Shown: piece after piece, positions 31,601-62,567 of the stretch | Layout of the letters: the number at the start of each line of letters is the position of its first letter | How positions within the stretch are numbered: the first letter of the stretch is position 1 | Assembly: GCA_025062155.1 (NCBI GenBank) | Contig: JANXAM010000008.1 | Coordinates: forward strand, 11,786-75,785 | Length of the DNA: 64,000 nucleotides | Reading direction: 5' to 3' | DNA from: Gloeomargarita sp. SKYB120 | Lineage (GTDB): Bacteria; Cyanobacteriota; Cyanobacteriia; Gloeomargaritales; Gloeomargaritaceae | Translations under genes and position numbers: made by a program | The notes under the pieces: model-generated | What the model saw: the letters and a program-made list of their open reading frames with translations, nothing else | Told to the model about the DNA's origin: nothing | Database searches by the model: none

Positions 31601-31763
31601 GCCACAAAGATTTCGGTCATTCAATAGACTATACGACGATAACCAGACGCCTCGACCTGGCGACAGCTTGCCCCATTTCGTTCGCGCAAATACAGATGAA
31701 TGGCTCTCACCTGGGTCACCATAGGCCAAGTAAGGTATTTGGTGTTCGGTGCTAGGGAAACCC

Positions 31764-32492
31764 ATGCGATTTTTGGTGGTCAAGCACGTGCCGGAGGAGG
31801 GGTTGGGTCTGATTGCGCCTTGGTGTGCTGAGGCGGGGATTGCGGTTGAGGTGGTGGAACTGGGTCAAGGTGAACCGTTGCCGTCGCCGGTGGGCTACCA
31901 GGCGGTGTGGGTGATGGGCGGCCCGATGAACGTGGACCAGGAAGCAGAATACCCCTGGCTAGTTGGGGAAAAACGGTGGATTCGCCAGGTGGTGCAGGAC
32001 TATCAAATTCCCTACATCGGCGTGTGTCTGGGGGCGCAGTTGTTGGCTGAAGCGTTGGGTGGTCGTGTAGGGGCGATGCCCCGGCCCGAGGTGGGGTTGA
32101 CACCAGTGTACCTGACGCCCTGCGCCCAGGACCATCCCTTGCTGCGGGGATTGCCCACGCCGTTTGTGGCGCTCCACTGGCACGGGCAAGAGGTGCAAGC
32201 GTTACCCCCACAAGCGAAACGGCTCGCCTCGTCAGACCTGTGCCAGGTGCAGGCGTTCAGCGTGGGGGACTGGGCGCTCGGGTTGCAGTTTCACCTGGAG
32301 GCGGACGCGGCAACGGTGCGAGATTGGTGTCGCCTGCCGGATTATGCCGATGATTTCATCCAGGCCATGGGGGCAACAGGCGCGCAGGCGCTGGTGGCGA
32401 AAATGGATGAAGAATCCCCCCGGATGACCCAGGTGGCGCGGCAATTGTTTGCCAATATCTGCGCGATGGTGGAACGGCGCTGGCGCGCATGA
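31764..32492 (+). CDS. type 1 glutamine amidotransferase (GuaA-like GATase)
   Basis: MGGPM, GVCLGAQ nucleophile Cys, WHG, LQFHLE His-Glu. Confidence 0.9.
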   Translation: MRFLVVKHVPEEGLGLIAPWCAEAGIAVEVVELGQGEPLPSPVGYQAVWVMGGPMNVDQEAEYPWLVGEKRWIRQVVQDYQIPYIGVCLGAQLLAEALGGRVGAMPRPEVGLTPVYLTPCAQDHPLLRGLPTPFVALHWHGQEVQALPPQAKRLASSDLCQVQAFSVGDWALGLQFHLEADAATVRDWCRLPDYADDFIQAMGATGAQALVAKMDEESPRMTQVARQLFANICAMVERRWRA

Positions 32493-34526: not shown

Positions 34527-34569
34527 GACGGCCTCCTATGTGACTGATCACTACTGTAATCCATCCCCT

Positions 34570-35100
34570 TCAGTTCGTTGGGGTCGTCCCGGTGACCTGA
34601 AACGAATCGAAAAATTGGGGTAAATCTCCTTGATGGTTCTGGGGCACAATCGCGTAAAGCCCGTAAACCCGTTGCCCCACAAAATAAAACCGCATTTGGG
34701 CAATGCCGCCGCCCTTGAGCCGTTCGGGAGGAACGCTTAGAGTGATTTCTCGCCCTGGATATGGCCCTAGCTGGATTGCGCGTTCCCGGGTCACTTGCCC
34801 CTGCACCCGCTGTTGCGCCTGCGCCTTGAGTTGCGCCCACATCAGCGGGGAGTCCACCAAACGCGCCACTGGCTGGTTATAGTCCGTCAAGATGAGCGCG
34901 TAGGACCCCTGGGGGCGGTTTACCTCCCACGCCTGAGTTTTCACGTCCCCGACAGGCGTTTCCAGTTGCCGCTCCTCATACTGGGGTTTCCCCGGCAAGC
35001 GCACCTGAAACCCATTACCCTCTACCAGTTGCCAGCGTGTCCCAAGCTGACAACCCGCAACCAACACCATGACTCCGACACCCCACCGTGCCAGCCGCAT
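34570..35100 (-). CDS. putative lipoprotein
   Basis: Basic N-terminus, hydrophobic stretch, lipobox LVAG-C at residue 17. Confidence 0.6.
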   Translation of the reverse strand: MRLARWGVGVMVLVAGCQLGTRWQLVEGNGFQVRLPGKPQYEERQLETPVGDVKTQAWEVNRPQGSYALILTDYNQPVARLVDSPLMWAQLKAQAQQRVQGQVTRERAIQLGPYPGREITLSVPPERLKGGGIAQMRFYFVGQRVYGLYAIVPQNHQGDLPQFFDSFQVTGTTPTN

Positions 35101-40695: not shown

Positions 40696-42093
40696 TTACT
40701 CCAACTCAAATTCTTCCGCCAGGATTTCCTGCAACCTCACCTGGGTTCGTTCCGCAAAGGCTTTCACATCCACCGCCCGCAACAACAGCGCTGCCAACCC
40801 CAACAGCAACACCTGCGTCCCGAATACCGGCACATAGGCCCAAAAACTTTCCGCCCCAAACCAGCGCGTCCCCAGTTCTAGCAACCCGCCGCCGCACAGG
40901 GTGGACAAGGCCCGCGCCAGCGCTTGCGCCAGCCCCCACGCCCCGATGAACGTCCCCGCCGTTTCCGCCAGCGTCAAATCCAGCATCAACGTCAAGGCGC
41001 CGGTGGTGGTGACGCCGGAAGCAATCCCGAATGCCAGCACCATGACCGTAAACAAACCCGCCTGACCAAGCCACCCCGCCAGCATGATCCCCATAAACGC
41101 CAGCGCCGAAAGGACACAGCCCAGCACCGTCGTCGGTCGTTTCCCCAGGCGCGGCACAATGACAAACCCGGTCAACACCAGCCCCAGCAACGTTCCCACC
41201 CCAAAGTAGGCATTCAACCGCGTCGTCTGGGCAATCGGCATGTTAAAAATGGTGCCGCCATAGGGTTCCAGCACCGGCTCCTGCATAAACAACCCCAGCG
41301 TCATGCACAGCAGGAAGGTGAAAAACAAGCCCGTCTGGGGACTGGCCGTCAGAATCCGCAGCGCTCGCCCCAGGGTAATCTGGTCTTCTCGTTCCGCCAC
41401 CCGCGACCGTTGCCGATAGCGAGAAAATTTGCCTTCAATTCCTGCGGTCGAGACCACTGCCAGTCCAAATACCGCCAGCGGCACGATGGTGAACAACCGG
41501 TTCATACTCGCCCGTATCACGTCCGGCGCGGCATCCAATTCCACCTGCCTGAGTAACCCGCTCCCCGTAATCGCCCCGGCAATAATCCCTACCATCAGCA
41601 ATGACCAGACCACCCCGACAATCTGAGAGCGATTATCTTCATCAGAAATATCCACCAGCAACGCCGCAAAAGGAGTCGAACTGGCGCTTACCGCCAACCC
41701 GTACAGGGCAAACCCCAATCCCAGCAGCGCCACCCACGCCCAAGTCACCCATGTCCAGCCCGCTTGCATCTGCGCTGCTGCCTGCCAAGTCATTTGCACG
41801 ACGCTCCAGGCCAAAAACGCAAAGGTCGCCGCCCCCAGCCACACATACCCCGTGCGATGGGTGCCTGCGATGGGATGGGCATCGGACAATTGACCAAACC
41901 ACACCCGCGCCGGCGCCACCAACTGGTGCATAGCAATGACTCCTGCGGCCACCAACGGCGGAATCGCCAACTCGCTGATCATCACCCGGTTGAGAATTCC
42001 CAGCATGAGCACCGACATCATCCCCAAACCGGCCTGGAAGAGACCCAAGCGCACCATCGTCCACACGGTAATACGGGGGTATGGCTGACTCAT
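40696..42093 (-). CDS. PucC/BCD-family MFS transporter
   Basis: RLGLFQ...LNRVMISEL, GTHRTGY, QEPVLEPYGG, TAGTFIGAWGLAQA. Confidence 0.9.
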   Translation of the reverse strand: MSQPYPRITVWTMVRLGLFQAGLGMMSVLMLGILNRVMISELAIPPLVAAGVIAMHQLVAPARVWFGQLSDAHPIAGTHRTGYVWLGAATFAFLAWSVVQMTWQAAAQMQAGWTWVTWAWVALLGLGFALYGLAVSASSTPFAALLVDISDEDNRSQIVGVVWSLLMVGIIAGAITGSGLLRQVELDAAPDVIRASMNRLFTIVPLAVFGLAVVSTAGIEGKFSRYRQRSRVAEREDQITLGRALRILTASPQTGLFFTFLLCMTLGLFMQEPVLEPYGGTIFNMPIAQTTRLNAYFGVGTLLGLVLTGFVIVPRLGKRPTTVLGCVLSALAFMGIMLAGWLGQAGLFTVMVLAFGIASGVTTTGALTLMLDLTLAETAGTFIGAWGLAQALARALSTLCGGGLLELGTRWFGAESFWAYVPVFGTQVLLLGLAALLLRAVDVKAFAERTQVRLQEILAEEFELE

Positions 42094-50024: not shown

Positions 50025-50101
50025 GCTCGGACCTGCCGCCTCGGGGTGGTTGAACTCTATCTCTACTATACTAGGACGGAAAGGCACCAGTGGGGCACCC
50101 C

Positions 50102-50728
50102 ATGTTTACGGGTTTGGTCCAGGCCCTGGGCCAGGTGCAGCGCTACTGCAGCGACTACATCCAGATCACGACGGCGATGCACCGTTTTCCCGACCTGGCG
50201 GTGGGCGATAGTATTGCGGTGGATGGGGTGTGTCTGACGGTCACAGCGCTGGACGCCCAGGGATTTACCGCCGCCATGTCTCCGGAAACGCGCCGGCGCA
50301 GCACCTTGGGCCAACGGCGCTGGGTAAATCTCGAAGCGGCGCTGCGGGTAGGCCAAAAACTGGGAGGCCACTTCGTCACGGGCCATGTGGATGGGGTCGG
50401 CTATCTGCAACGCACGACCATGGTCGGCCAGGACTTCTGGGAAATGGACTTTACCGCCCCGCCCGAGGTTGCGCGCTACCTGGTGCCCAAGGGAAGTATC
50501 GCGGTTAATGGAGTAAGTTTGACCATCGCCGCAGTTGCAGACGCCCTGTTTCGGGTGGCGGTGATTCCCTTGACCTACCGGAGCACCAACCTGCAGTACC
50601 TGCGCCCTGGCGACCCGGTAAACCTAGAGGCGGATATTCTGGGCAAGTACGTGGAACGGTTGCTCCAGCCTCGGTCGGTCGCGCCGGACTTGACGCTGGA
50701 AGTTCTCGCGCAACACGGGTTTGTCTAG
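50102..50728 (+). CDS. ribE: riboflavin synthase (alpha chain)
   Basis: MFTG start, SIAVDGVCLT, VNLE, GGHFVTGHVDG, KGSIAVNGVSLT. Confidence 0.95.
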   Translation: MFTGLVQALGQVQRYCSDYIQITTAMHRFPDLAVGDSIAVDGVCLTVTALDAQGFTAAMSPETRRRSTLGQRRWVNLEAALRVGQKLGGHFVTGHVDGVGYLQRTTMVGQDFWEMDFTAPPEVARYLVPKGSIAVNGVSLTIAAVADALFRVAVIPLTYRSTNLQYLRPGDPVNLEADILGKYVERLLQPRSVAPDLTLEVLAQHGFV

Positions 50729-53700
50729 GCCGCTACACCTTCCAGCCGGTCTTCTAGGTCAGCGTAAATCTCCCGCAACTGGGCGATGGTGTCCGCGTCC
50801 GCTTGCCACAGCCCCCGACCGTTGGCCTCCAGCAGGCGCCCCACGATATTGCGCATGGCTTGGGGGTTGAGCTTGGTCAGGCGCTCCCGCATGGTGGGGT
50901 CCAAGGCATAGGTGCGCGCCGCCGCCGTGTAGGTCCAATCGTCTACTGCACCGCTGACGGCGTCCCACCCCAGCAGGTAGGTGAAGCGGTTGCTGATCTC
51001 GGCGGCGCCGCTGTGGCCGTGCTGCAACATCCCCTCGTACCAGTGGGGGTTGAGTAGCTTGGTGCGGTATTCCAGCCGGAGCACCTGCGGCAGGTCCTCC
51101 ACGCGCGTATCGGCGGTGAAGGTTTCGATGTAGTTTAATGGCACGTCGCCGCCGTGGTGCTTGCGGGCCGCCAGTTGGAGAGCACCCGACGAGGCAAAGT
51201 AGTGGTCGATGTCGGTGACCCCGAACTCGACCGAGTCAATGGTGTGGGCCACCCGCTCGACTGTGCGCAACAGCCGCTCTAGGGTTTGGGGCACGGGTTG
51301 GCCGTGGCGACCGCCCCCGTAGGCGTAGGCGTTGCGGCGGATAAACGTCTGGGCCAGGTCGTCGTCGGTTTGCCAGGCGGCGTCCTCCACCAGGTCATCT
51401 ACGTAGGTGCCGTACTGGCCCGGCGGCTGGGTGAATAGGCGGGCGGTGGCCTGCTCGAAGGTCAATCCATCCTGCAGGGCCGCTTCGACATGTTTTTTGA
51501 TGAAGTTCATCTCCAGGGGTTCGTCGGCACGGGCGGCTTCCTTCACCAGGCGGTCCAGGTGGTCCATCAGTTGCGCGAAGGTGTCCCGGAAGATAGGGCT
51601 GAGCTGCATCAGAACGTCAATGCGCGGGCGGCCCAGTTCCTTCAGGGGAATCAGTTGGTAGTGGCTGATTTTGCCCTGGCTGTCGTGGTGGGGTCGCGCG
51701 CCTATGAGATGTAACGCAACGGCCACCGCCTCTCCCTTGGTTTTGATGGTGTCCAGCCCCCAAATGACCTGGGCCACGGTTTCGGGGTACTGGCCGTTGT
51801 GTTCCGCCAGGTGTTTGGCCAGCAGGGCGTCGGCGATCTGTTTGCCTCGCCGGTAGGCCAGCTCGCTGGGAATCCGCCAGGGGTCAATGGCATGGATATT
51901 GCGCCCTGTGGGTAAGACCGCCAGGCCGTCCCGGATCAAATCGCCCCCTGGCGCTGGTGGGATATAGCGCCCGTTCAAGCCGCGCACCAACGCTTCCAGT
52001 TCGCTGCGGTTGTCCTGCAGGAGCTGGGCCATCCGACGGCCCATCTGGGCGGCCTCCTGCAACACCGCCCGGTCGCTTTCCGTCAGAGTTGTGCCTTGCA
52101 CGGCGAGACGCTCCAGGCTCTTGAGGGGGTCTTCTCCATGAAACACGGCGCGTTCGACCCATTCCCGACAGGCTTCGTCCACCCGCTCCCGCAGGCGCAA
52201 GGCGGTGGGGTCCCCTTGCCGCGCTCGGGCCGCCAGTTCGCGGTAAGTCGGCACGGGCGTCTCTGGCGCTACTTCCCGCAGCATCAGATTCGCCAGGCCG
52301 TGCCCGTTCCCCCGCACCTTCAGCGCTTCCGTGACGGTTACCTGCTGCGACGCCAGGGGCGGGGCTTCCCCAAACACATGGAGCGAGCTGGTGATCAGGC
52401 GCTGCTCTAGGTCGCGCAGGTAGGCGTACAGGCGGGCCACATAGTCGTCAAAGGGTTCTCCTTGCAGGCGCGGGCAATCCGTGTCCAGGTTGGCCAGGGC
52501 CACTTTTTGTGCAATGGCCTCGGCCAGGGATGGGTCCCCCTGACCGCCGTGCTCCATCTGGCGCTCCCGGTAGTCCTGCACCATCGCCTGGAGAGCCGCC
52601 AGTTCCTTGTACAACCCAGCGCGGGCCAAGGGCGGTACCCCGTGGGATACCATCACGGCATAGCCCCGGCGCTTGGCGATGTTGGCCTCGCTGGGATTGT
52701 TCATCGGGTAGAGGTACAACTGGGGCAATTCACCCAGCAGCACATCGGGCCAACACTGCTGGGTCAGCCCTAGGGGTAACCCTGGCATCCATTCCACCGA
52801 GCCGTGCATCCCCACATGCACCAGAGCGTGCGCGCCGAAACCACGGCTGAGCCAGCGGTAGAACGCCAGGTATTGGTGGTGGGGGGTGTTTTCCTTGTCA
52901 AACAGCAAGCGCATTGGGTCGCCAGTGACCCCCAACCGCGGTTGCACGCCGATGTAGATGTTTCCAAACTGGAGACCGCCAATGAAAACGGCATCCCGAC
53001 CCGCAGGGGCAATGTCGCCTGGCCAGGGTCCCCAGCGCTGCTCGACGCGCTCCCGTTCCTTGGGCGTGGTCCACTGGCAGAACTTGTCCCAGGTCACCCG
53101 CAGACCGCCTGGCTGCAGGGTGGTGGCCGCCTCCAGTTGCGCTAGCAGGGCCTCTGGCGTCTCTGGTAGAGCCCCAACGGTGTAGCCCTCCGCTTTCAGC
53201 CGCCGCAGGATGTTGAGCAGGGAGCGGGGGACATCTAGCAGGGCTGCCGTCGCTTTTTTCCCTAGTCCTGGCGGGTAGTCGTACACCACAAACGCAATCC
53301 TTTTCTCCCGATTGGGAGTGTGCCGCAGACGCGCCCAGTTTTTGACGCGAGTGACCAGCCGTTGGACCCGGTCCGGCACGACAGTGAAGTGGCCATGGTC
53401 GAGCGCCCCAATGACTACGGGGTTGATTGCGCCGTCCATCTCCGGCAGGTCGTACAGCGCCGCCGCCTGCATGGGTCCCACGCCCTGGCTGTGCCACGAG
53501 GTGACATCTTGCACGTATAGGGGTTGGGCCACCAGGTAGGGAACGTCTAGGCGCTCTAAGATGGCAATCGCCGCATCCCGATGGGTGCCAGGGCTGGTAG
53601 AACCGGCAGGACCGCCCACCAGCGCAAAGCCAATCGTGCTAACTAGCACGTCCACCGATTCCTGGGTCAGCCAGTCGCGCACTACGACATGCCCCTCCAC

Positions 53701-54525
53701 GCCAGCTACAAAGATGGGAAGCACCTGCAGGTCGGCGGCCTCCATCGCCCGGATCAGCGCGTCAATATAGCTCCGCTCCTGCAACAAGTGCTTGCGGAAA
53801 AACAGCAGGGCGACGGTATAGGTCTCTCGCCCATGGGAGTGGGTGCGTTTGGCTTGCCATTGGCGGTAACTTTTGAGGTCTTTGAAAAAGTGAGGCGCAT
53901 CCGGGTGGTACAGCCCCATCAGGGGAACCTCCACCACCGGCTGCACCTCCACCGGCACGCCGAAGTACTCCCGCAGCAGGAAGCGGAACAGGTTGGTGAT
54001 GTTGACCGGCAGGGGCTGGTTCCAGTAGAGGTTGACCTGCATCCAGTTCTTGAAATCCCGCAGCTTGGCCGGCAGGAAGCGCAGCAAGGTGGGCATGAGC
54101 TTCAAAAGCTGGGTGTAGCCGTAGAGAGTGTCTTCATCGCGACCTCGCACTAACAAGCGCACGACTTGCTTGATGGGCTCCGGCATCCCACCCTTTTGCC
54201 CCGACCGTTGCGCGACCACGTAATCCCCCAAGCGGTTGAGGGCCATCACCTCCGGCATGGATTCAAACGCCAGCACCACCTGAGCACGGGATTGGGCCAC
54301 CTGCTCCCGCAGCCAGTCCGCCTGCTCTTTGAAGTTGATCATGGTGATGAACAGCGCATCGGCTTTCCGGATGGCCTCGGCCACGGCAGGGTCGCGGCGT
54401 TCCAACTCCCATTCGGTAAATTGCTGCAAATCGGCAACGGGCGCCAAGTCGGCTTTCACTTGGTCCCACACCGACCGGTTAAAGTGTTCTAGACCGACGA
54501 TGGCAACAAGCTGGGGCTTGGACAT
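50725..54525 (-). CDS. bchH: magnesium chelatase subunit H (BchH/BchS/BchT-like)
   Basis: 1266 aa; HVGMHGSVEWMPG, NNPSEANIAKRR, LPTGRNIHAIDP, DSVEFGVTDIDHY, RTKLLNPHWYEGML are Mg-chelatase-H type rather than CobN type. Confidence 0.85.
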   Translation of the reverse strand: MSKPQLVAIVGLEHFNRSVWDQVKADLAPVADLQQFTEWELERRDPAVAEAIRKADALFITMINFKEQADWLREQVAQSRAQVVLAFESMPEVMALNRLGDYVVAQRSGQKGGMPEPIKQVVRLLVRGRDEDTLYGYTQLLKLMPTLLRFLPAKLRDFKNWMQVNLYWNQPLPVNITNLFRFLLREYFGVPVEVQPVVEVPLMGLYHPDAPHFFKDLKSYRQWQAKRTHSHGRETYTVALLFFRKHLLQERSYIDALIRAMEAADLQVLPIFVAGVEGHVVVRDWLTQESVDVLVSTIGFALVGGPAGSTSPGTHRDAAIAILERLDVPYLVAQPLYVQDVTSWHSQGVGPMQAAALYDLPEMDGAINPVVIGALDHGHFTVVPDRVQRLVTRVKNWARLRHTPNREKRIAFVVYDYPPGLGKKATAALLDVPRSLLNILRRLKAEGYTVGALPETPEALLAQLEAATTLQPGGLRVTWDKFCQWTTPKERERVEQRWGPWPGDIAPAGRDAVFIGGLQFGNIYIGVQPRLGVTGDPMRLLFDKENTPHHQYLAFYRWLSRGFGAHALVHVGMHGSVEWMPGLPLGLTQQCWPDVLLGELPQLYLYPMNNPSEANIAKRRGYAVMVSHGVPPLARAGLYKELAALQAMVQDYRERQMEHGGQGDPSLAEAIAQKVALANLDTDCPRLQGEPFDDYVARLYAYLRDLEQRLITSSLHVFGEAPPLASQQVTVTEALKVRGNGHGLANLMLREVAPETPVPTYRELAARARQGDPTALRLRERVDEACREWVERAVFHGEDPLKSLERLAVQGTTLTESDRAVLQEAAQMGRRMAQLLQDNRSELEALVRGLNGRYIPPAPGGDLIRDGLAVLPTGRNIHAIDPWRIPSELAYRRGKQIADALLAKHLAEHNGQYPETVAQVIWGLDTIKTKGEAVAVALHLIGARPHHDSQGKISHYQLIPLKELGRPRIDVLMQLSPIFRDTFAQLMDHLDRLVKEAARADEPLEMNFIKKHVEAALQDGLTFEQATARLFTQPPGQYGTYVDDLVEDAAWQTDDDLAQTFIRRNAYAYGGGRHGQPVPQTLERLLRTVERVAHTIDSVEFGVTDIDHYFASSGALQLAARKHHGGDVPLNYIETFTADTRVEDLPQVLRLEYRTKLLNPHWYEGMLQHGHSGAAEISNRFTYLLGWDAVSGAVDDWTYTAAARTYALDPTMRERLTKLNPQAMRNIVGRLLEANGRGLWQADADTIAQLREIYADLEDRLEGVAA

Positions 54526-54544
54526 GGCTGATTCCTCCGCGTCT

Positions 54545-56347
54545 TTAGGACGGAACGTTCGTCGCCGTCAGCGTCTGGGCAATCTGCTCGGCGCGGGCGT
54601 TGGGCAAGTACACGTAGCGTCCTCCCAACCACTGGGCCAGTTGGGCGGCTTCGCTGCGGGAAAGGTAGTTCACCTGGGTGTCCAGCACGATGGCCTGCAC
54701 CCCATCGGCTTGGAGCTGCTGGGCAAGGCGTTGGACTTCTGCTTGCAGGCGCTGGCGGTCTCCCGCTGGTGCCTGGAGTCCGACGTTGGCCCGGCCATCG
54801 GTCATCAGCACCAGGGTAATGTTGGCGATGCCCCGCTGGCGCGCCTGGTGGGCCAATTGCCAGGCCGTGAGCAACGCCGCAGCCAGGGGCGTCCCACCTC
54901 CTGTAGGCAAAACATCCAGTTCCCGGCGGGCGCGTTCGACGCTCTGGGACGGGGGCAGCAACACCTGGGCGCTTTGCCCCCGAAAGGCCAGCAACGCCAC
55001 CTGGTCCCGATGGACGTAGGCGTTCTGCAGCAGGTGGATGGCGGCCCCCTTGGCCTCGCGCATCCGGTTGATGGCCATGGAACCGCTGGCGTCTACTGCA
55101 AAGATGTACAGGGTGCCGGCCTTGTCCCGGTATCGTTTCACCCGCAGGTCGTCGCGCCGCACGCAAATACGGGTGTGCCCCTGGGACTGGCGCAGGCGTT
55201 GCCAGGGAGCCGCCGCCATCAAGGTCGGCAATAGGGCAATCCGGCCAGTGTCGCCGCTGACAGCCCGCACAAACCGTCCGCGACGGGCATTGAGGGTTTG
55301 CCCCCGACTCCCACGGCGTCCTCGGCGCTGGGCCGCAAAGGGCAGATCCAGCAGGTTGGGCGGCAAAGCGGTTTGCACCGCCTCCAGCAGCAGCTCCTGC
55401 AACGGGCGTTCGCTAGTCGCCGGTGCGTCGTCAGGTTCGGCCTGGTGCGAGTCACTAGCCTGGCTAGGACGAGGCGCGGTCGGCGGCGTCGGCGCAGGGG
55501 TGTCCTCCGTTGGAACCTGGGTTGCCCGCGGCAGGAGCACTAACCGCACAGCTAACTGGAGGTCAGTCTCCTCCACTGTCTCCCGTCCCGCTAGGGCGGC
55601 GCTGGTCAACGCCGCTTGGACGGCGAAGAGGTCGGCGCGGTTGCCTTCCACACCTAGGGCTAGGGCAGTTTGCAGGAGCGCCCTCGTCTGGTCGTCGCTG
55701 ATCTGCACCTGGGGGAGCCGTTCCCGCGCCGCCTGGAGCATCCCCCGCAACAGGGTCGTTTCCTCCACCGCGCCACAGGGGTGAAAGTGACGCCGCACCA
55801 CCTCGGCCCGCAGCCGCGCATCGCCCTGGTTCAGGAGGGGTGCCAGCAAGCCCAACCGGTCCAGTAGCGTCACCGGCAGGTCCCCCTCAGCGGGGTCGTA
55901 GGTGGCAATCAAAACAAAACGCGCTGGCTGCACCGTACTGAGTCCTTCTCGCTCTACCCGCACAACACCGCTGCTCAGCACTTCGGCTAAGGTAGCTGTG
56001 AGGGAGGGTTCCAGGCGATTGGCGTTGTCCAGGTACAGTACGCCCCCGTGGGCCTGGGCCAGCACCCCAGCGGCCAGAACTGGCACTCCCTTGATCAAGG
56101 TCGCCTCCAGGTCTAGACCCCCAATCAGGCGGTCTTCGGTGATGTTGAGGGGCAATTCCACAAAGGGGGTGCCTTCGGGAAGCAAAGCAGCCAGCGCCCG
56201 CACCAGGGTCGATTTGCCACTTCCGGCTTTGGCTGCAATCGCCGCACCCGCTAGCAGGGGGTTGACCGCTAACAGCAGGAGCGCCTGTCGTGCAGTTTCC
56301 AGGCCGACGATACGGGTAAAGGGCACTTCCGCAGGAACTGTTGCCAT
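54545..56347 (-). CDS. bchD: magnesium chelatase subunit D
   Basis: AAA+ N-terminus (GSGKS, FVELPLNITEDRL, VEREG), Pro/acidic linker, vWA with MIDAS VDASGS. Confidence 0.9.
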   Translation of the reverse strand: MATVPAEVPFTRIVGLETARQALLLLAVNPLLAGAAIAAKAGSGKSTLVRALAALLPEGTPFVELPLNITEDRLIGGLDLEATLIKGVPVLAAGVLAQAHGGVLYLDNANRLEPSLTATLAEVLSSGVVRVEREGLSTVQPARFVLIATYDPAEGDLPVTLLDRLGLLAPLLNQGDARLRAEVVRRHFHPCGAVEETTLLRGMLQAARERLPQVQISDDQTRALLQTALALGVEGNRADLFAVQAALTSAALAGRETVEETDLQLAVRLVLLPRATQVPTEDTPAPTPPTAPRPSQASDSHQAEPDDAPATSERPLQELLLEAVQTALPPNLLDLPFAAQRRGRRGSRGQTLNARRGRFVRAVSGDTGRIALLPTLMAAAPWQRLRQSQGHTRICVRRDDLRVKRYRDKAGTLYIFAVDASGSMAINRMREAKGAAIHLLQNAYVHRDQVALLAFRGQSAQVLLPPSQSVERARRELDVLPTGGGTPLAAALLTAWQLAHQARQRGIANITLVLMTDGRANVGLQAPAGDRQRLQAEVQRLAQQLQADGVQAIVLDTQVNYLSRSEAAQLAQWLGGRYVYLPNARAEQIAQTLTATNVPS

Positions 56348-56351
56348 TGCA

Positions 56352-57443
56352 TCAAGTTGGGGCTAACGCCGAGACCATAGCCGGTGGCCGGTGGTGGTGC
56401 CGCGCCAGCAGGTCGGTCAGCGCTTGGCTGACCTTGTCGCCCGCATCCATAGTTTCCAAGGGGTCACGGCGCAAACGGTGGCGCAGGGCGGGTACGGCCA
56501 CACGGCACACATCATCAATCGTGGCCTGGGGACGGGCTTCTAGCGCCGCCAAGGCACAGGCGGCTCGCGCCAAGGTCAACTCCCCGCGGTGACCGTCCAC
56601 GTTGAGCACCATGCACAATTCGGCGGCAAAGCGCAGAACCGCCTCCGGCAGTGTCACCTGGGGAAGACGTTTTTGGGCCGCCAGAATCTGCCGTTGCAGG
56701 GCGCGCTGTTGCGGTTGCCACTGGGCGACAAACGCCACCGGGTCAGCGTCGTAAGCGCGCCGGCGGCGGACAATCTCCAGCCGTTGTTCCAGGTCAGTGA
56801 TGGTGACGATGCGGGCGTGGAGTCCAAAGCGGTCCAGCAGTTGTGGGCGCAACTCCCCCTCTTCCGGGTTGCCCGACCCCACCAGTACAAACCGGGCCGG
56901 GTGCCGCACACTGATTCCCTCGCGTTCCACCACGTTCCACCCGCTGGCGGCCACATCCAGCAGCAGGTCCACCAAGTGGTCCTCCAGCAAATTCACCTCG
57001 TCAATGTAGAGGAACCCCCGATTGGCCTGGGCGAGCAGTCCCGGCTGAAACCGTTTAATCCCCAACGTCAGGGCTGCTTCGATGTCAATGGTGCCGCACA
57101 CCCGGTCCTCCGTCGCCCCCAAGGGCAAGTCCACCACTGGCACCGGGATGCGTTCCGTCCGTTGCGGGCGCTCTGCAATGCCGACTGCCGCCAACAGCGG
57201 GTCCTCCGCCGGTACTTCCTTGGGCGCGCGGTTGAAGGGGTCACCTGCTAGCCGAGTAATTTTGGGAAGCACTGCCGCAAGCGCCCGTACCGCTGTACTT
57301 TTGCCGGTCCCGCGATGCCCCATGACCATCACGCCGCCAATGCGCGGGTCCACGACGTTGAGCAACAGGCACAGTTTCATTTCCTCTTGCCCGACAATGG
57401 CGGTGAAGGGATAAAGCGGCGGGGTTCGCATGCGGTTACCCAT
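56352..57443 (-). CDS. bchI: magnesium chelatase subunit I
   Basis: YPFTAIVGQEEMK, GHRGTGKS, LPLGATEDRVCG, DEVNLL, GSGNPEEGELRPQLLDRFG; alternative start 57431. Confidence 0.93.
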   Translation of the reverse strand: MGNRMRTPPLYPFTAIVGQEEMKLCLLLNVVDPRIGGVMVMGHRGTGKSTAVRALAAVLPKITRLAGDPFNRAPKEVPAEDPLLAAVGIAERPQRTERIPVPVVDLPLGATEDRVCGTIDIEAALTLGIKRFQPGLLAQANRGFLYIDEVNLLEDHLVDLLLDVAASGWNVVEREGISVRHPARFVLVGSGNPEEGELRPQLLDRFGLHARIVTITDLEQRLEIVRRRRAYDADPVAFVAQWQPQQRALQRQILAAQKRLPQVTLPEAVLRFAAELCMVLNVDGHRGELTLARAACALAALEARPQATIDDVCRVAVPALRHRLRRDPLETMDAGDKVSQALTDLLARHHHRPPAMVSALAPT

Positions 57444-57668
57444 AAACCCCCTTCAGGACTTGCTTTCTGAAAATGCTTCAACCGGCTCAGCCCCGGCTGT
57501 GTTTTGGCTTTGGGGCTATTTCTATACTAAGGTGGGGCTATGCCAGTTACCCGGGTCATTGCCGTCACTGTTGCCAAAACGTAACAGTCCATTCATGGTT
57601 GGGGCAATGGGAGTTGCTTGCCAACGGGTCAAAGTTGGTAGATTAGGGGTGCCGGCTAAAGGGTTGTT

Positions 57669-59819
57669 ATGGATGACGTGGTGTCCTTACCCTTGACCCA
57701 TCCCAGCCACTTTCTCAACCGGGAAAAAAGCTGGTTGCGCTTCAACGACCGGGTGTTGCACGAGGCATTAGATAACCGCACGCCCCTGTTGGAGCAGGTG
57801 AAATTTTTAGCCATCTTCAGCACTAACTTAGACGAATACTTCATGGTGCGAATTGATGCCCTGCGCGACCAGATTGAGGCCAACGTCACCACGCCGACGC
57901 CCGATGGTTTAACCCCCCAGGAGCAGTTGGATTTAATCAGTGAGCATTTGGCGCCGGTGGTTGCGCAACAGCATGAGTATTTTGCCAAACACTTGCGTCC
58001 CCGTTTGGCGGAGGCGGGGGTCGTGATTGCGGATTACCCCGACTTGACGCCAGAGCAAAAAGCCTACCTGCACCACGACTTCATGCGGCGGGTCTTTCCC
58101 ATCCTGACGCCCCTGGCGGTGGACCCCGGCCATCCTTTTCCCTACATGTCCAACCTGAGTCTGAACCTGGCGGTGCTGCTGCGGGACAGCCAAACCGGTC
58201 AGCAGCATTTTGCGCGGGTGAAAGTCCCCACCAAGGCGGCGTCGAATCCGGGGGGCAGGGCTCTCAAGCGGTTTGTCACTCTGCCGGAACCCCTGCGACC
58301 GGCGGGGGTGCGCTGGTTAGGCGTGCCGTTGGAGCAAATCATCGGTCACCATCTCGAGAGCCTGTTTCCGGGGATGGAGATTGTGGGCTGGTACCCCTTT
58401 CGGGTGACGCGGGATGCGGACCTGGAAATCCGGGAGGACGAGGCGGGCGACCTGCTGGCGGAGGTGGAAAAGGAGGTCCGCCGTCGCCGTTACGGTCGCG
58501 ATGCCACGCGTCTGGAAATTGCCCAGGACGCGCCGCCTTTGGTGCGGGAGATTCTCACCCAAGGGCTGCACATCAGCGACCCCTGGATTTACAACATCAA
58601 CACGCTCATCAACCTAGGGGATTTGATGGAACTGGCGTTTTTGCCCTTCCCCGATCTGCGCGACCCGGATTGGACGCCCGTGTTGCCAGCCATTTTTGAG
58701 GAAAAAGCCTACAGCGATGCCCTGAACGGGATTGACTGGTTCAACTTGATCCAGCAGGGGGATGTGCTGGTGCATCACCCTTACCATTCCTTTGCCGGGA
58801 CGGTAGAGCGGTTTATCGAGCAGGCGGCCAACGACCCGGACGTATTGGGGATCAAAATGACGCTGTATCGCACCTCCGGGGACTCCCCCATTGTCCAGTC
58901 GCTGATCACGGCGGCGGAAAACGGGATTCAGGTGGCGGTGCTGGTGGAACTCAAGGCGCGCTTTGACGAGGAAAACAACATCCAGTGGGCCAAACGGCTC
59001 GAGCAGGCTGGGGTGCATGTGGTGTATGGACTCATCGGCCTGAAAACCCACTGCAAGGTGGCGCTGGTCGTGCGTCGGGAAGGAGATGACATTCGCCGCT
59101 ACATCCACCTGGGCACCGGCAACTACAACTCGAAAACGGCGCGGATTTACACCGATTTGGGGATGTTGACCTGTCGCGAGGACGTGGCTGCCGATGTCTC
59201 GGAGTTGTTCAACTTTCTCACGGGCTATTCGCGGCAGCGGCAATACCGGCGGCTGCTGGTGGCTCCTGTCAGCATGCGCGAGGAAATGGTGCGGCTGATT
59301 CGCTACGAAGCCGAGCAGGCCCGTCACGGCAAACCCGCCCACATTTTTGCCAAGATGAATGCCTTAGCAGACACCGACATCATTCTGGAACTCTACCAGG
59401 CATCCCAGGCGGGCGTGGACATTCGTTTGCTCGTGCGGGGGATGTGTACCCTGCGACCGGGCGTGCCGGGGTTAAGCGAGCGGATCCGGGTCGTGAGCAT
59501 CATCGGGCGATTTTTGGAGCATTCGCGGGTGTTCTGGTTTCACCACGGCGGCGAAGACCTGATGTACATTGGCAGTGCGGACTGGCGGACGCGCAACCTG
59601 GACCGACGGGTAGAAACCCTGGCGCCGGTGCTAGACGCTGGTCTCAAGCGGGAATTGCAGGAGATCATGGAACTGATGTGGAACGACAACCGCCAGGCCT
59701 GGGATTTGCAGCCCGATGGCACCTATATCCAGCGGATGCCAGGTCCAGGCGAACCGGAGCGAGGTTCCCATGCCCTGTTGATGCAGCGGGCCCTCGCGGA
59801 AGCCAATGCCCTGGTTTAG
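57669..59819 (+). CDS. ppk1: polyphosphate kinase 1
   Basis: NREKSWLRFNDRVL, NLDEYFMVR, HHPYHSF, ARFDEENN, KTHCK, HLGTGNYN, RFLEHSR. Confidence 0.96.
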   Translation: MDDVVSLPLTHPSHFLNREKSWLRFNDRVLHEALDNRTPLLEQVKFLAIFSTNLDEYFMVRIDALRDQIEANVTTPTPDGLTPQEQLDLISEHLAPVVAQQHEYFAKHLRPRLAEAGVVIADYPDLTPEQKAYLHHDFMRRVFPILTPLAVDPGHPFPYMSNLSLNLAVLLRDSQTGQQHFARVKVPTKAASNPGGRALKRFVTLPEPLRPAGVRWLGVPLEQIIGHHLESLFPGMEIVGWYPFRVTRDADLEIREDEAGDLLAEVEKEVRRRRYGRDATRLEIAQDAPPLVREILTQGLHISDPWIYNINTLINLGDLMELAFLPFPDLRDPDWTPVLPAIFEEKAYSDALNGIDWFNLIQQGDVLVHHPYHSFAGTVERFIEQAANDPDVLGIKMTLYRTSGDSPIVQSLITAAENGIQVAVLVELKARFDEENNIQWAKRLEQAGVHVVYGLIGLKTHCKVALVVRREGDDIRRYIHLGTGNYNSKTARIYTDLGMLTCREDVAADVSELFNFLTGYSRQRQYRRLLVAPVSMREEMVRLIRYEAEQARHGKPAHIFAKMNALADTDIILELYQASQAGVDIRLLVRGMCTLRPGVPGLSERIRVVSIIGRFLEHSRVFWFHHGGEDLMYIGSADWRTRNLDRRVETLAPVLDAGLKRELQEIMELMWNDNRQAWDLQPDGTYIQRMPGPGEPERGSHALLMQRALAEANALV

Positions 59820-59886: not shown

Positions 59887-60297
59887 TTATCGCCACAACC
59901 CTACCCCTACACCCAGGCTCAACACGCCCACCAACAAAAAGGCTAGCGTGACCCCCCACAAATCCCGAAAATAGGCCAGCCGGGCTACCTGTGGTCGCTG
60001 GGGATGATAGAGCACTGGTACCGTATCACCGACTCTGCACCCCAAATTCCCCACTTGGGACGTAAAACGCACAAGCTGGCGGTTAGGTAACACAAATTCC
60101 ACGACCGGATAACAGGCGTCGTAGGGCACCCTTCCCACTCGCTGGCGACGGTATTCTAAATCAATCACCCGTCCTGACGTTTTCACGGCCACTTGCAGCA
60201 GTTGGTACGTCCGTAATACTTCCCACAGTCCCCAACCTGTGAACCCTGCGCCCATCAGTAAAGCCAAAATGCTGCCAAGCAGGCGCTGACTCGTCAT
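59887..60297 (-). CDS. DUF3592-like two-TM membrane protein
   Basis: TM - G.V - YPVVEF - GDTVPVLYHPQRPQ.AR - TM architecture. Confidence 0.75.
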   Translation of the reverse strand: MTSQRLLGSILALLMGAGFTGWGLWEVLRTYQLLQVAVKTSGRVIDLEYRRQRVGRVPYDACYPVVEFVLPNRQLVRFTSQVGNLGCRVGDTVPVLYHPQRPQVARLAYFRDLWGVTLAFLLVGVLSLGVGVGLWR

Positions 60298-60354
60298 CCC
60301 TTCCCCAAAACTGCCTATAATGCTGGGCAAGTCCTGTTACCTAATTTACTACCG

Positions 60355-60789: not shown

Positions 60790-62567
60790 TTGATAACTGT
60801 TTAATGTTTTATGTACGCTTATATGGGCATCTAGCCATGAAATTGAGTGAGTGGTGCCAGCGGTTGTGCGTCTGACATTGAGCTACCAAGCGCGGATTGC
60901 CACCAGCTCAGAACAGCATCAGGTGCTGTCTGCCTACGCGGAATTATTTGGCCGGGTGGAGCGGTCTCTCTTTGCCGCGGTGGTTGCTGGGCGGGACAAA
61001 AACCAGATAAAACGGGAATTTCTGCAACGGTTTGGTATCACTGCTAGACAATTCAACAGTGCGCGTGTGGAGCTAGAAGGACGCCTACGGGCTGTCAAGG
61101 AACGTCAAGCAACACAAGTTGAACAGTTGCCGCAGAAGATACGTCAAGCACAACAGATTATTAAGAAGGAAAAACGTCGGTTTGTCTTGCACCAGAAGCA
61201 ACGCCGCTTGGCTAGGTTGCAAAGTCAACTGGCGCGTCTGGAAGCCGACAGGCGCAGTGGCAAGATACGACTGTGTTTCGGTTCTAATTCCTTATTTCGC
61301 CAGCAGTTTGCTCTGGCGGCCAACGGTTATCGCTCCCATGCAGAATGGTTAGCCGACTGGCGGTTGAGCCGCTCTCGACAGTTTTTCGTACTTGGTAGTC
61401 AGGATGAGACAGCCGGTAATGTGTCATGCCAAGCCGTACCGGAAGCTGACGGGATGTTCACGCTTTATCTGCGCGTGCCCGATGCACTCGTGCAGCGGTT
61501 TGCTAACTGTTTGTCTCCCGGGCTGCAACAAAGGGGGAAGAAAGTCTACCTGAAGCTAACGGGTATTCGGTTTGCGTATGGCCAGGACCAAATTGTACAA
61601 GCGTTGCAGGGAGTGAAGGTACGCACCACGACCTGTCGTAGCAAAGCCACGACCAAGCGTATTGGCACACCCGTCAACTATCGTTTCATACGGGATGAGC
61701 GTGGTTGGCGTGTGATGGTCAGTGTTGAACCGATGCCACCAGAGCCGGTGACCAACCGAGCGGCTGGTGCTATTGGTGTGGACATCAATGCTGACCACTT
61801 AGCCGTAACCGAAATGGACCGGTACGGGAATTGGGTGAGCTCCTGGCGGTTGGACCTAGACCTGGATGGGAAAACCGCTGGTCAGAAGCAGGCGGTGATT
61901 TTGGAAGCCTGCGCCCAGGTTGCGCGGTTAGCAGCAGAGAAGGGGAAGCCTTTGGTTGTAGAAGAGCTCGACTTTCAACGGAAGCGAGCACAACTAGAGA
62001 GTGAATCGCCCCGCCGTTGCCGCCAGTTGTCGAGTTTTGCTTACCGTAAGATTCTCACGGGTCTCAAGTCCGCTGCGTTGAGAGCGGGGGTGGAAGTGTG
62101 TGAAGTCAACCCAGCCTACAGCACTGTCATTGGTGCGGTTAATTACGCCAGGAAACTTGGCATTTCACCCCATCTTGCCGCGGCGTTGGTGTTGGCTAGA
62201 AGAGTTTTGCGCCTGAGTGAACGACCCGTTGGTCAGGGGACAGTCATTGTTCCTTGGCGTGGCGGTCATGTCACCTTCTCTCTACCTGCAAGGAATCGAG
62301 AGAAGCATGTATGGTCGTTTTGGCGGGAAGTTGCTCGGGCGCAAGCGGCGGTCGTACCGCAGTCACTGGGTCGTGCGAGTCTCCGGCTACCACCGGTTGG
62401 AGATGACCGACCACCTGGTCATCTGTTAGCCGACACATGGCCTGAGTGCAGCAGTGACTTGCCGGTGGGAGTCCGGCACGCTCCGCTCCTGCAGGTGGCG
62501 GGAGAAGTTGTTGGGAGTGCCGTTTGCCCAGCAGCCTGTGGATAATTGTCCATAGTTTTAGGAACGG
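60790..62567 (+). mobile_element. non-autonomous IS607-like element with tnpA stub and tnpB
   Basis: Follows host GG (60788-60789) and ends ...TTTTAGGAACGG; GGTTG is present at both junctions; MKLSEW stub at 60837. Confidence 0.8.
60851..62545 (+). CDS. tnpB: TnpB-related protein (long IS200/IS605/IS607 accessory type, no Zn finger)
   Basis: YQARI...YAELFGRVERSLF, LCFGS, RuvC-I GVDINAD, RuvC-II VVEELDF, VNPAYS, PHLAAALVLARR; true start uncertain. Confidence 0.85.
   Translation: MVPAVVRLTLSYQARIATSSEQHQVLSAYAELFGRVERSLFAAVVAGRDKNQIKREFLQRFGITARQFNSARVELEGRLRAVKERQATQVEQLPQKIRQAQQIIKKEKRRFVLHQKQRRLARLQSQLARLEADRRSGKIRLCFGSNSLFRQQFALAANGYRSHAEWLADWRLSRSRQFFVLGSQDETAGNVSCQAVPEADGMFTLYLRVPDALVQRFANCLSPGLQQRGKKVYLKLTGIRFAYGQDQIVQALQGVKVRTTTCRSKATTKRIGTPVNYRFIRDERGWRVMVSVEPMPPEPVTNRAAGAIGVDINADHLAVTEMDRYGNWVSSWRLDLDLDGKTAGQKQAVILEACAQVARLAAEKGKPLVVEELDFQRKRAQLESESPRRCRQLSSFAYRKILTGLKSAALRAGVEVCEVNPAYSTVIGAVNYARKLGISPHLAAALVLARRVLRLSERPVGQGTVIVPWRGGHVTFSLPARNREKHVWSFWREVARAQAAVVPQSLGRASLRLPPVGDDRPPGHLLADTWPECSSDLPVGVRHAPLLQVAGEVVGSAVCPAACG

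Follow-up and report, generated by a model that had tools for sequence, protein, structure and literature searches.

The 64,000-nucleotide stretch of DNA from Gloeomargarita sp. SKYB120 that was analysed here (the window) carries a horizontally acquired Mg-chelatase operon of the type found in anoxygenic phototrophs, although its host is a cyanobacterium. We consider it quite probable that a Chloroflexota-type bchIDH operon was inserted in the ancestor of a high-GC hot-spring clade of Gloeomargarita and has been retained since then, most likely as an extra Mg-chelatase.

The operon consists of bchI, bchD and bchH, which follow one another head to tail on the minus strand and are flanked by ribE and ppk1 (Table 1). 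The contiguity of the three genes, their gaps of 4 bp (bchI/bchD, 56348-56351) and 19 bp (bchD/bchH, 54526-54544), their flanks and the short D subunit, a 600-aa ORF that contains EGTPFVELPLNITEDRLIGG, were all correctly described in the first-pass annotation. The bchH stop is overlapped by 4 bp by ribE, and 225 bp separate bchI from the start of ppk1. In the NCBI gene call of the metagenome-assembled genome (MAG), bchI starts four codons later, which results in a protein of 359 aa. The operon stands alone, outside any photosynthesis gene cluster with bchF, pucC, bchC and bchXYZ, as expected for a transferred cassette. The region upstream of bchI contains neither an ORF nor a bchF remnant, and scanning it for the sigma-70 consensus gave no match. 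It is weakly conserved across lineages, with a TAtAGAAAT-like stretch common to the window and HHBFW, and presumably serves as promoter of bchIDH and, on the opposite strand, of ppk1.

Table 1. Features of the bchIDH locus (positions in the window)
Feature	Positions	Strand	Description
ribE (riboflavin synthase)	50090-50728	+	NF006767, 210 bits; 3' end rebuilt by the insertion
Inserted segment, ~6.9 kb	50726-57625		bchH, bchD, bchI and upstream region; bounds from the empty site in L006
bchH	50725-54525	-	Porphyrin-binding catalytic subunit, 1266 aa
bchD	54545-56347	-	Bridging subunit, 600 aa; AAA+-like N-terminal domain, Pro-rich linker, VWA/integrin-I domain with MIDAS
bchI	56352-57443	-	AAA+ motor subunit, 363 aa
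bchI upstream region	57444-57625	-	Brought in with, or made by, the insertion
Ancestral ribE 3'-end relic	57626-57646	+	Last ~6 codons and TAG stop
ppk1 (polyphosphate kinase 1), right-hand flank	57669-59819	+	NF003921, 997 bits

All three subunits exceed the cut-offs of the corresponding NCBIfam equivalog profiles, with 533.5 bits for BchI (TIGR02030, cut-off 466.95), 692.4 bits for BchD (TIGR02031, cut-off 499.55) and 1561.9 bits for BchH (TIGR02025, cut-off 829). BchI aligns over its full length with the solved ChlI and BchI structures and has an intact Walker A motif (GHRGTGKS, residue 42) and Walker B motif (FLYIDE, residue 144). It possesses the motifs MGHRG, LDVAAS and DGHRGEL, whereas the two solved cyanobacterial ChlI sequences have MGDRG, LDSAA and DGLRGDI. 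The Pfam domains AAA_5, AAA_lid_2, AAPxQ and VWA are on record for BchD, which carries the MIDAS motif DASGS at residue 419. VAIVGLEHFN and MINFKEQ are present in BchH, so that the motifs originally quoted for the I and H proteins were all recovered. From the list of catalytic and proton-relay residues of ChlH given in a review (PMC13297055), BchH keeps the equivalents of Synechocystis H621, E625, Y651, Y653, E660 and H1174 in alignments to 4ZHJ; the offset of +20 allowed for the tag in the chain numbering is our inference and is backed by the match of all six positions. BchH scores 1105 bits against NF009140, under the cut-off of 1300 of this model. Based on orthology and conserved residues, on which the assignment of Mg specificity rests, the three proteins are predicted to constitute a complete Mg-protoporphyrin IX chelatase.

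It is very improbable that the enzyme chelates another metal or substrate in its new host, for instance cobalt in a CobN-like manner or another porphyrinoid. Such a role might be considered, since H and CobN are homologous, a role of ChlI and ChlD in serving CobN has been proposed for organisms without CobS/T (PMC9227772), and the only cobN annotation in a sister MAG is short. However, while BchH is strong on the BchH equivalog model, it reaches the cut-off of none of six CobN models (705 bits with a cut-off of 1468, 640 with 822, 566 with 1248, the rest lower), its best PDB matches are 767 bits for ChlH versus 488 bits for CobN, and the catalytic residues of Mg-chelatases are kept. The earlier argument against CobN, which was based on the H motifs, is borne out by these scores. 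Moreover, the orthologs in the donor group are placed between bchF and bchC/XYZ.

The host is cyanobacterial, namely a Gloeomargarita of high GC content from hot springs. The same stretch of contig is contained in the NCBI MAG GCA_025054555.1, with Psb34, DUF3181 and DUF2839 as neighbours, and phosphoribulokinase and NdhK are also encoded in the window. Ppk1 of the window clusters with Gloeomargarita MAGs within the cyanobacteria and is 94% identical to that of Gloeomargarita sp. SKYG116. The third codon positions of the operon have a GC content (GC3) of 0.74-0.79, which lies inside the host range, so that composition provides no independent sign of foreign origin.

The site of insertion can be read from a related genome. 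In the sister hot-spring genome L006 the site is empty, with ribE followed directly by ppk1 at the ancestral spacing of 26 bp. In the window, GGGTCAAAGTTGGTAGATTAG aligns with GGTCAAACCTGGTACAGTAG, the true end of ribE in L006, and the conserved ribE-ppk1 spacer GGGTGCCG comes after this relic. Upstream of ppk1, L005 and L088 carry the relic as well, and it is kept in every operon-bearing genome examined. RibE ends with QHGFV in the window, in contrast to QHGFMGAGSNLVQ in L006. The combination of the empty site with the relic in the operon-bearing genomes indicates an insertion of 6.9 kb and neither a chimera nor a deletion elsewhere. In the Ppk1 tree, four operon-bearing genomes form a clade with L006 as its sister (both 100%), and the operon occupies the same site in at least three species-level lineages. 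Since the empty-site relative likewise dwells in hot springs, the distribution of the operon is not a simple reflection of thermophily.

The closest relatives of all three proteins outside Gloeomargarita belong to the Chloroflexota. Identity to the Anaerolineae MAG L085 amounts to 84% for BchI, 78% for BchD and 81% for BchH, and the window BchH shares 75-81% with Chloroflexota. In three database-wide searches, the best matches of H, I and D were Gloeomargarita MAGs, then Anaerolineae, Thermoflexales, Roseilinea and Brachytrichaceae (Chloroflexota), and then Chlorobi; no canonical cyanobacterial protein was among the best 120 matches for any subunit. BchI is about 60% identical to the two solved cyanobacterial ChlI, including that of Synechocystis, and BchH is 39% identical to the representative of the ChlH1 50%-cluster. 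Trees were computed by neighbour joining from distances to which a simple correction was applied. In these trees the Gloeomargarita copies form a single group (bootstrap 100, 100 and 91) that is placed inside the Chloroflexota (H 100; I 100 with the nearest group; D 98-100), with Chlorobi as the sister clade of this joint group. None of the subunits branches with canonical cyanobacterial ChlI, ChlD or ChlH, the sampling of which was thin (two sequences of ChlI, a single 50%-cluster representative of ChlH1 and zero of ChlD). In the Chloroflexota relatives, bchI-bchD-bchH is part of a photosynthesis gene cluster, pucC-bchF-bchI-bchD-bchH-bchC-bchXYZ, and this placement is conserved across deep lineages.

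The first-pass annotation was therefore right in proposing horizontal gain from an anoxygenic phototroph, but the Chlorobium-like source that it favoured (BchS/T) does not hold, since Chlorobi proteins are just 56-60% (H), 64-70% (I) and 52-56% (D) identical and form a sister clade. The I motifs that it had regarded as those of Chlorobium are indeed Bch-type; however, as they occur in all Bch-type sequences examined, they are not a mark of Chlorobium. The likely donor is a phototrophic Chloroflexota bacterium similar to Anaerolineae, as represented by 'Ca. Thermofonsia', Roseilinea and Thermoflexales MAGs.

Two other explanations of how such genes came to lie on a cyanobacterial contig have to be weighed. 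A misjoined Chloroflexota fragment, that is an artefact of assembly or binning, was already named in the first-pass annotation as a danger to its reading. The source is metagenomic, the sample series also includes Chloroflexota whose genes are 77-84% identical (L089 belongs to the same accession series), and the same runs contain further bch-type bchI contigs. Against this, identical ppk1|bchIDH|ribE junctions are found in at least four MAGs that were assembled independently and belong to three diverged species, Logan contigs from four metagenome runs of two studies cross the two junctions with uniform coverage, the relic of ribE occurs along with the rebuilt ribE stop, and the operon and its flanks have diverged in step, with similar dS. 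A metagenomic chimera is thereby effectively refuted, and we regard its probability as negligible. It is also highly unlikely that the operon represents an ancient vertical paralog of the ChlH2/BchH2 type that was lost elsewhere, or that the transfer went from a cyanobacterium to Chloroflexota. An algal CHLH2-like cluster is indeed the sister of the Chlorobi and Chloroflexota group in the BchH tree, but the window BchH is only 42-46% identical to this cluster, compared to 75-81% with Chloroflexota, and the Gloeomargarita clade lies within Chloroflexota diversity at 100% support. The empty site and the relic show the insertion to be derived, ChlH2 is reported to be absent from G. lithophora, and the Chloroflexota genes reside in a cluster that is conserved in deep lineages.

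The ORFs of bchI, bchD and bchH are intact in all lineages examined. With dN/dS values of 0.06-0.13 (dS exceeding 1), which resemble those of the neighbouring ppk1, the operon appears to be under strong purifying selection and to have been inherited vertically since the insertion. In a metatranscriptome of the sister MAG, the three operon genes reach RPKM values of 29-226, a level comparable to that of the native chlI (119), and operon transcripts are zero in some samples (PMC11304991, Table S8). There are 3, 5 and 18 fixed amino acid differences from Chloroflexota in I, D and H, respectively. Those in BchH cluster in the N-terminal 250 residues (10 of 165 invariant sites there versus 8 of 652 elsewhere, p=0.0009, for a region chosen post hoc).

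It is more probable that the acquired enzyme was added to the native one than that it took its place. The sister MAG retains a native chlI with its best match in G. lithophora, which supports the reading that BchIDH is most likely an extra, self-contained chelatase beside native ChlI/D/H. In a xenologous replacement, by contrast, BchIDH would provide the sole H and D subunits of Mg-chelatase, native chlH and chlD (perhaps also gun4) would be lost, and the retained chlI would be redundant or serve CobN. We judge this unlikely. The strong selection on all three acquired genes would fit it, as would operon expression that equals or exceeds native chlI in the sister MAG. The fixed BchH substitutions cluster where Gun4 has been modelled to dock on ChlH. 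The listed annotations of the sister MAG include no canonical chlH or chlD, but this means little, since they cover approximately 0.7 Mb, or roughly one quarter, of its about 3 Mb. The native chlI kept in the sister MAG speaks against replacement. There is a minor chance that an anoxygenic-type, GUN4-less Mg-chelatase acts as the principal or only H/D chelatase of the host, possibly adapting via changes in the N-terminal head of BchH. If true, the oxygen sensitivity and the missing GUN4 control that are commonly attributed to BchH-type enzymes would be no absolute barriers to oxygenic photosynthesis. On this reading, the gain of the operon may in addition have allowed the lineage to grow close to the highest temperatures that cyanobacteria tolerate.

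For an additional chelatase of Chloroflexota origin, which we prefer, the following history can be proposed. Phototrophic Anaerolineae-like Chloroflexota share hot-spring mats with the Gloeomargarita host, and in the common ancestor of the high-GC hot-spring Gloeomargarita clade a 6.9 kb piece with only I, D and H entered the last codons of ribE and split the ancestral ribE-ppk1 pair. It has been passed on vertically under strong purifying selection ever since and is transcribed in the sister species. In the enzyme, BchI acts as AAA+ motor, BchD as MIDAS/integrin-I bridge and BchH in porphyrin binding and catalysis, and the complex most likely inserts Mg2+ into protoporphyrin IX on the way to chlorophyll a. 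The operon may have been retained because, under some condition of hot springs such as high temperature or low O2 at night, a chelatase that stems from thermophilic donors without GUN4 works better.

The closest known systems are the BchIDH proteins of 'Ca. Thermofonsia' clade 3, Ca. Roseilinea and Thermoflexales MAGs, which have the same lengths and Bch-type motifs at 78-84% identity and are encoded in the same contiguous I-D-H order downstream of bchF. In contrast to these Chloroflexota, the present host is oxygenic and its operon is detached from bchF, pucC, bchC and bchXYZ. The BchI/BchD and BchH/S/T proteins of Chlorobi, the next-closest group, are likewise Bch-type, with shared I motifs and similar lengths. 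The canonical chlI, chlD and chlH genes are usually unlinked. The canonical ChlI/D/H system of cyanobacteria and plants, which works with GUN4, shares the predicted reaction, the three-subunit architecture, the catalytic residues of H and the Walker and MIDAS motifs. Compared to it, the window BchH is about 65 residues shorter than ChlH and belongs to another major clade of the BchH tree than the ChlH1 representative, and BchD, set against ChlD, has 600 aa. The likeness to aerobic CobN, which acts with CobS/T or ChlI/D, is that of a homologous H/CobN fold with the Pfam CobN-Mg_chel domain. Some cyanobacteria and green algae have the ChlH2/CHLH2 isoform, likewise a second, BchH-related H subunit in an oxygenic organism. 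However, ChlH2 is described as an old isoform clade, reported absent in G. lithophora (PMC10156173), while the window H came together with I and D subunits of its own, its insertion site has been mapped and it is 75-81% identical to living Chloroflexota; in the BchH tree, this type of isoform was represented by the algal CHLH2-like cluster. Our literature search found no earlier report of such a transfer into cyanobacteria for Mg-chelatase. A comparable case is that of DPOR, since BchL/N/B of a Synechococcus/Prochlorococcus clade group with Proteobacteria (PMC7842958). There, too, an enzyme of chlorophyll biosynthesis has apparently moved from an anoxygenic lineage into cyanobacteria, although enzyme, donor phylum and recipient lineage all differ from those of Gloeomargarita BchIDH.

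Our analysis shows that a full set of Bch-type I, D and H genes, Chloroflexota in origin, has been inserted in ribE and conserved. Three contiguous reading frames lie between ribE and ppk1, with gaps of 4 bp (bchI/bchD) and 19 bp (bchD/bchH), and all three score above the equivalog cut-offs for Mg-chelatase subunits. Every motif quoted in the first-pass annotation was found in the window proteins. As reading frames, equivalog scores, flanks and motifs all check out, that observation holds as it was written. The Walker A and Walker B motifs are intact in BchI, the MIDAS motif is kept in BchD, and BchH retains the equivalents of Synechocystis ChlH H621, E625, Y651, Y653, E660 and H1174, the six positions that make up the essential catalytic residues and the proton path according to a review (PMC13297055). 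BchH stays under the cut-off of every CobN model in NCBIfam, which bears out the earlier argument that the H subunit is not a CobN. Judged by sequence, the window proteins are ordinary members of the BchI, BchD and BchH families, and it is the host and the history that are unusual.

Features of the window discussed in the text
Feature	Position	Strand	Description
TnpB/IS605 OrfB-like gene	15287-16513	-	typical 408 aa; OrfB_IS605 and Cas12f1-like TNB domains
Type III RM methyltransferase	29039-31783	-	914 aa; PADLOC MTase_III 679 bits
PucC/BCD-family MFS gene	40696-42093	-	Pfam PUCC 364 bits
ribE, riboflavin synthase	50090-50728	+	flank; stop overlaps bchH stop
bchH	50725-54525	-	1266 aa; TIGR02025 1562 bits, cut-off 829 (NCBIfam equivalog)
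bchD	54545-56347	-	600 aa; TIGR02031 692 bits, cut-off 500 (NCBIfam equivalog)
bchI	56352-57443	-	363 aa; TIGR02030 533 bits, cut-off 467 (NCBIfam equivalog)
ribE 3' relic	57626-57646	+	21-nt ribE part of GGGTCAAAGTTGGTAGATTAGGGGTGCCG
old ribE tail and spacer	57626-57668		TAGGGGTGCCG
ppk1, polyphosphate kinase	57669-59819	+	flank
TnpB/IS605 OrfB-like gene	60851-62545	+	564 aa, longer; weak TnpB/Cas12f match only

Database-wide, the matches rank alike for I, D and H: a few Gloeomargarita MAG proteins (77-91%) are followed by Chloroflexota (60-86%) with the labels Anaerolineae, Thermoflexales, Ca. Roseilinea and Ca. Brachytrichaceae, and then by Chlorobi (52-70%). No canonical cyanobacterial ChlH, ChlI or ChlD is among the best 120 matches listed per subunit; the representative search for BchH used residues 67-1266. 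Identity to an Anaerolineae MAG (L085) is 84% for I, 78% for D and 81% for H. The window BchI is 60% identical to Synechocystis ChlI, and BchH is 39% identical to P0134, a 50%-cluster representative of the canonical ChlH1 type (1979 bits against Synechocystis ChlH). In neighbour-joining (not maximum-likelihood) trees, built with few canonical cyanobacterial references and no named cyanobacterial ChlH2 sequences, the Gloeomargarita copies are monophyletic (bootstrap 100% in the I and D trees, 91% in the H tree) and fall inside Anaerolineae-type Chloroflexota (H 100% with all of them, I 100% with the nearest group, D 98-100%). The sister group is Chlorobi (100% for H), and the two cyanobacterial ChlI references stand at the opposite end of the I tree. 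The comparison with Chlorobium made in the first-pass annotation named the right kind of enzyme, a Bch-type one, but the wrong phylum, and the MGHRG-type motifs of the I subunit on which it drew turned out to be common to all Bch-type sequences examined. Composition was considered as a further transfer signal and dropped, since the GC3 of the operon lies inside the host range.

The photosynthesis gene cluster of the closest Chloroflexota relatives has the order pucC-bchF-bchI-bchD-bchH-(bchC-bchX...), and that of Roseilinea-like genomes reads bchI-bchD-methyltransferase-pucC-bchH-bchC-bchXYZ. The spacing of bchD and bchH varies in Chloroflexota (L085 13860-14285; two other clusters, L086 7802-9981 and L091 7761-9922): the two genes are adjacent in the closest relatives, and the methyltransferase and a second pucC separate them in the Roseilinea-like genomes. 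In L085, a DUF6069 gene sits between bchH and bchC. A close relative, the Thermoflexales MAG GCA_025054635.1, shares its accession series with the MAG of the window, and further Bch-type bchI contigs are present in the same runs as the window, which indicates that donor-like organisms share the habitat.

The arrangement ppk1, bchI-bchD-bchH, ribE occurs in five MAGs, namely that of the window, SKYG116, SKYB31, HHBFW_bins_205 and SRBZ-1.bins.9, the last according to the available entries of the annotation table published by Tan et al. 2024 (PMC11304991). Next in order of Ppk1 relatedness comes L006, a contig of a hot-spring MAG: it has the same left synteny (ABC transporter, BFN-domain gene, ribE), its ppk1 starts 26 bp after ribE, and there are no bch genes within 10 kb of this ribE-ppk1 pair. 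In the operon-bearing genomes ribE ends early: the C-terminus before the stop is ...QHGFMGAGSNLVQ in L006 versus ...QHGFV in the window. The last ribE codons of L006 together with stop and spacer read GGTCAAACCTGGTACAGTAGGGGTGCCG, and upstream of the window ppk1 the relic GGGTCAAAGTTGGTAGATTAGGGGTGCCG is found; the same ribE relic stands just upstream of ppk1 in two operon-bearing relatives (L005 and L088). Since the relic tells which arrangement came first, ribE directly followed by ppk1 is the ancestral state and the insertion is derived. By this comparison, about 6.9 kb (roughly 50726-57625) entered ribE within its last codons. The Ppk1 tree groups the four operon-bearing genomes together (100%) and makes L006 their sister (100%), which fits one insertion in an ancestor shared by all four. 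Inside the insert no integrase, transposase or tRNA was found, and neither a remnant of bchF nor donor DNA turned up in the region upstream of bchI.

The old ribE tail and the spacer upstream of ppk1 are kept in all lineages (in L006 at 9947-10000), which hints at a role in ppk1 expression. The insertion would perhaps have forced ppk1, once 26 bp behind ribE, to gain its own transcription start, and the operon might carry a promoter of its own in the 182 bp upstream of bchI. A sigma-70 promoter scan gave no match, no consensus promoter was detected in these 182 bp, and terminator-like sites occur at chance level.

BchD with identical flanks is also present on JANWZP010000017.1 (GCA_025054555.1), where its neighbours Psb34, DUF3181 and DUF2839 are of cyanobacterial type. 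A phycobilisome core-membrane linker lies a few genes off at a related locus, and the window itself also encodes phosphoribulokinase, NdhK and a PucC-family protein. The closest Ppk1 proteins, at 94% and 85%, are those of Gloeomargarita sp. SKYG116 and of a further hot-spring MAG, with the remaining cyanobacteria at 60% or less, and the SKYG116 and hot-spring MAG sequences fall within the cyanobacteria in the Ppk1 tree. At 59%, the G+C content of the window clearly exceeds the value of 52% reported for both G. lithophora and G. ahousahtiae, and every sequencing run holding the window is a hot-spring metagenome. Taken together, the neighbours, the Ppk1 placement, the G+C content and the hot-spring runs place the host in the Gloeomargarita lineage, as an uncultured hot-spring organism of high G+C. 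The HIP1 motif (GCGATCGC) is abundant in many cyanobacteria, and its absence from the 64 kb, against about one site expected by chance, is unusual by comparison but uninformative on the host here.

The window PucC is only 23-28% identical to the pucC products flanking bchF-I-D-H in Chloroflexota relatives, and its gene is probably the host's own and was not brought by the operon. The Type III methyltransferase gene has unannotated ORFs of 485, 677 and 176 aa on its flanks (27153-35100), of which the 677-aa ORF has weak MkoB/SMC-like matches. This region is a possible defence island; a Res subunit was not recognised in it. The longer of the two TnpB-like genes lies 1 kb past ppk1, outside the mapped insert.

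All three chelatase reading frames are intact in every lineage. Pairwise dN/dS of bchI, bchD and bchH among three species-level lineages is 0.06-0.13, and the dS of the operon (1.1-1.6) is near that of the flanking ppk1 (0.9-1.2). This indicates that operon and host have diverged together, with strong purifying selection acting on the operon. For the sister-species MAG SRBZ-1.bins.9, whose gene lengths in the available entries agree with the HHBFW-type operon, Table S8 of PMC11304991 gives RPKM values from four hot-spring metatranscriptomes; as far as these entries go, they show that the operon is transcribed in a sister species. In these entries, the best NR match of bchI, bchD and bchH is 'Candidatus Thermofonsia Clade 3 bacterium'; the word 'chelatase' is absent from the main text of that paper. 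No RNA runs with the window's own sequence are listed.

RPKM of chelatase genes of SRBZ-1.bins.9 in the available entries of Table S8 (PMC11304991)
Gene	202207_JZ-3	202207_QQ	202302_JZ-3	202308_JZ-3
bchI	0	0	126	29
bchD	0	0	0	176
bchH	22	0	0	226
native-type chlI	0	0	0	119

The genomes compared are MAGs throughout, and a metagenomic chimera had been named in the first-pass annotation as a possible refutation. The junctions recur in independently assembled MAGs from three diverged species, and both are covered at even depth by Logan contigs from four metagenome runs of two studies (for example, about 36 then 32 in run X1 and 27-31 in run X2), so that the operon is not a chimera. In the runs X2 and X4, the stretches 59912-60320 and 56434-57414 (bchI) are covered at 20-25x local depth with 2-17% differences, and a loose contig end beside bchI matches SKYG116-type upstream sequence; this points to a second, far more abundant operon-bearing Gloeomargarita species in those springs. 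The very deep bchI contigs belong to the SKYG116-like species and other abundant organisms, and additional Bch-type bchI contigs in those runs are probably from Chloroflexota.

BchIDH could have replaced the native chelatase or act beside it. According to the available table entries, SRBZ-1.bins.9 has a second chlI on a separate contig with G. lithophora as best match, which means that the sister species keeps its native I subunit at least. No canonical chlH, chlD or gun4 is among these entries, as replacement would predict, but they cover about 0.7 of about 3 Mb and say little on these genes. We therefore consider replacement unlikely and regard an additional chelatase beside native ChlI/D/H as the probable arrangement. 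Two candidates for native genes were discarded: P0532, a 677-aa BchD match of ChlD-like size, belongs to another Chloroflexota photosynthesis gene cluster, and a contig of fitting depth (36.8x), one of those at 80% likeness to bchI, is another Bch-type bchI (TLARAACALAALEGR..., rebuilt from the listed differences). Since the best NR match of the bch-type genes is Thermofonsia and that of the flanking ppk1 is G. lithophora, we infer that G. lithophora lacks the operon.

By analogy with the family mechanism, BchI and BchD would form an ATP-driven motor, the integrin-I/MIDAS domain of BchD would engage BchH, and BchH would insert Mg2+ into protoporphyrin IX; the Mg-protoporphyrin would then feed the chlorophyll a pathway of the host. 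At some sites four Chloroflexota sequences all agree, and the three Gloeomargarita lineages are all fixed for a different residue; BchI has 3 such differences, BchD 5 and BchH 18. In BchH, ten of them lie within the first 250 residues (10/165 versus 8/652 invariant sites, Fisher p=0.0009, for a region chosen post hoc), and three of the N-terminal changes are Met-to-Leu. Gun4 has been modelled on the head domain of ChlH (PMC13297055), and the N-terminal changes in BchH could mark an adjustment to partners in the host or to oxidative conditions, or simply a relaxation of constraint. Donor-type hot-spring organisms encode aerobic respiration (PMC5826079), so the donor BchH need not match the oxygen sensitivity known from strict anaerobes. 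One may speculate that the benefit of the operon lies in thermostability, in activity at night, when the mats are anoxic, or in independence from GUN4/Mg2+ thresholds. That the operon explains thermophily was rejected: the empty-site relative also comes from hot-spring metagenomes, which leaves a simple link unsupported.

Mg-chelatase is the branch-point enzyme of chlorophyll synthesis, and Gloeomargarita is the genus to which the closest known plastid relative belongs. Here, an anoxygenic Chloroflexota chelatase has been kept complete under purifying selection in an oxygenic lineage of at least three species, and the empty site and the relic cleanly map this case of pigment-pathway genes passing from an anoxygenic to an oxygenic phototroph in hot-spring mats. 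The Mg-chelatase of oxygenic organisms is thought to have needed a special adaptation, ChlH-type H subunits and GUN4, to work with oxygen present (PMC10156173). The cleanly documented transfer of a branch-point enzyme has testable consequences for GUN4 and oxygen tolerance. It offers a natural test of whether a BchH-type enzyme is workable in an oxygen-evolving cell, whether GUN4 is needed, ignored or co-opted by it, and whether subunits of the Bch and native systems can mix. Moreover, it puts a thermophile-derived three-subunit chelatase on offer for biochemical and structural work. Our literature check found no earlier description of an Mg-chelatase of Chloroflexota type in any cyanobacterium, Gloeomargarita included. 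Closest among published work are two studies: in the ChlH1/ChlH2 analysis of Rockwell and Lagarias (PMC10156173), ChlH2 is reported absent from G. lithophora, and in the other, the BchL/N/B of the Synechococcus/Prochlorococcus clade group with the Proteobacteria clade (PMC7842958).
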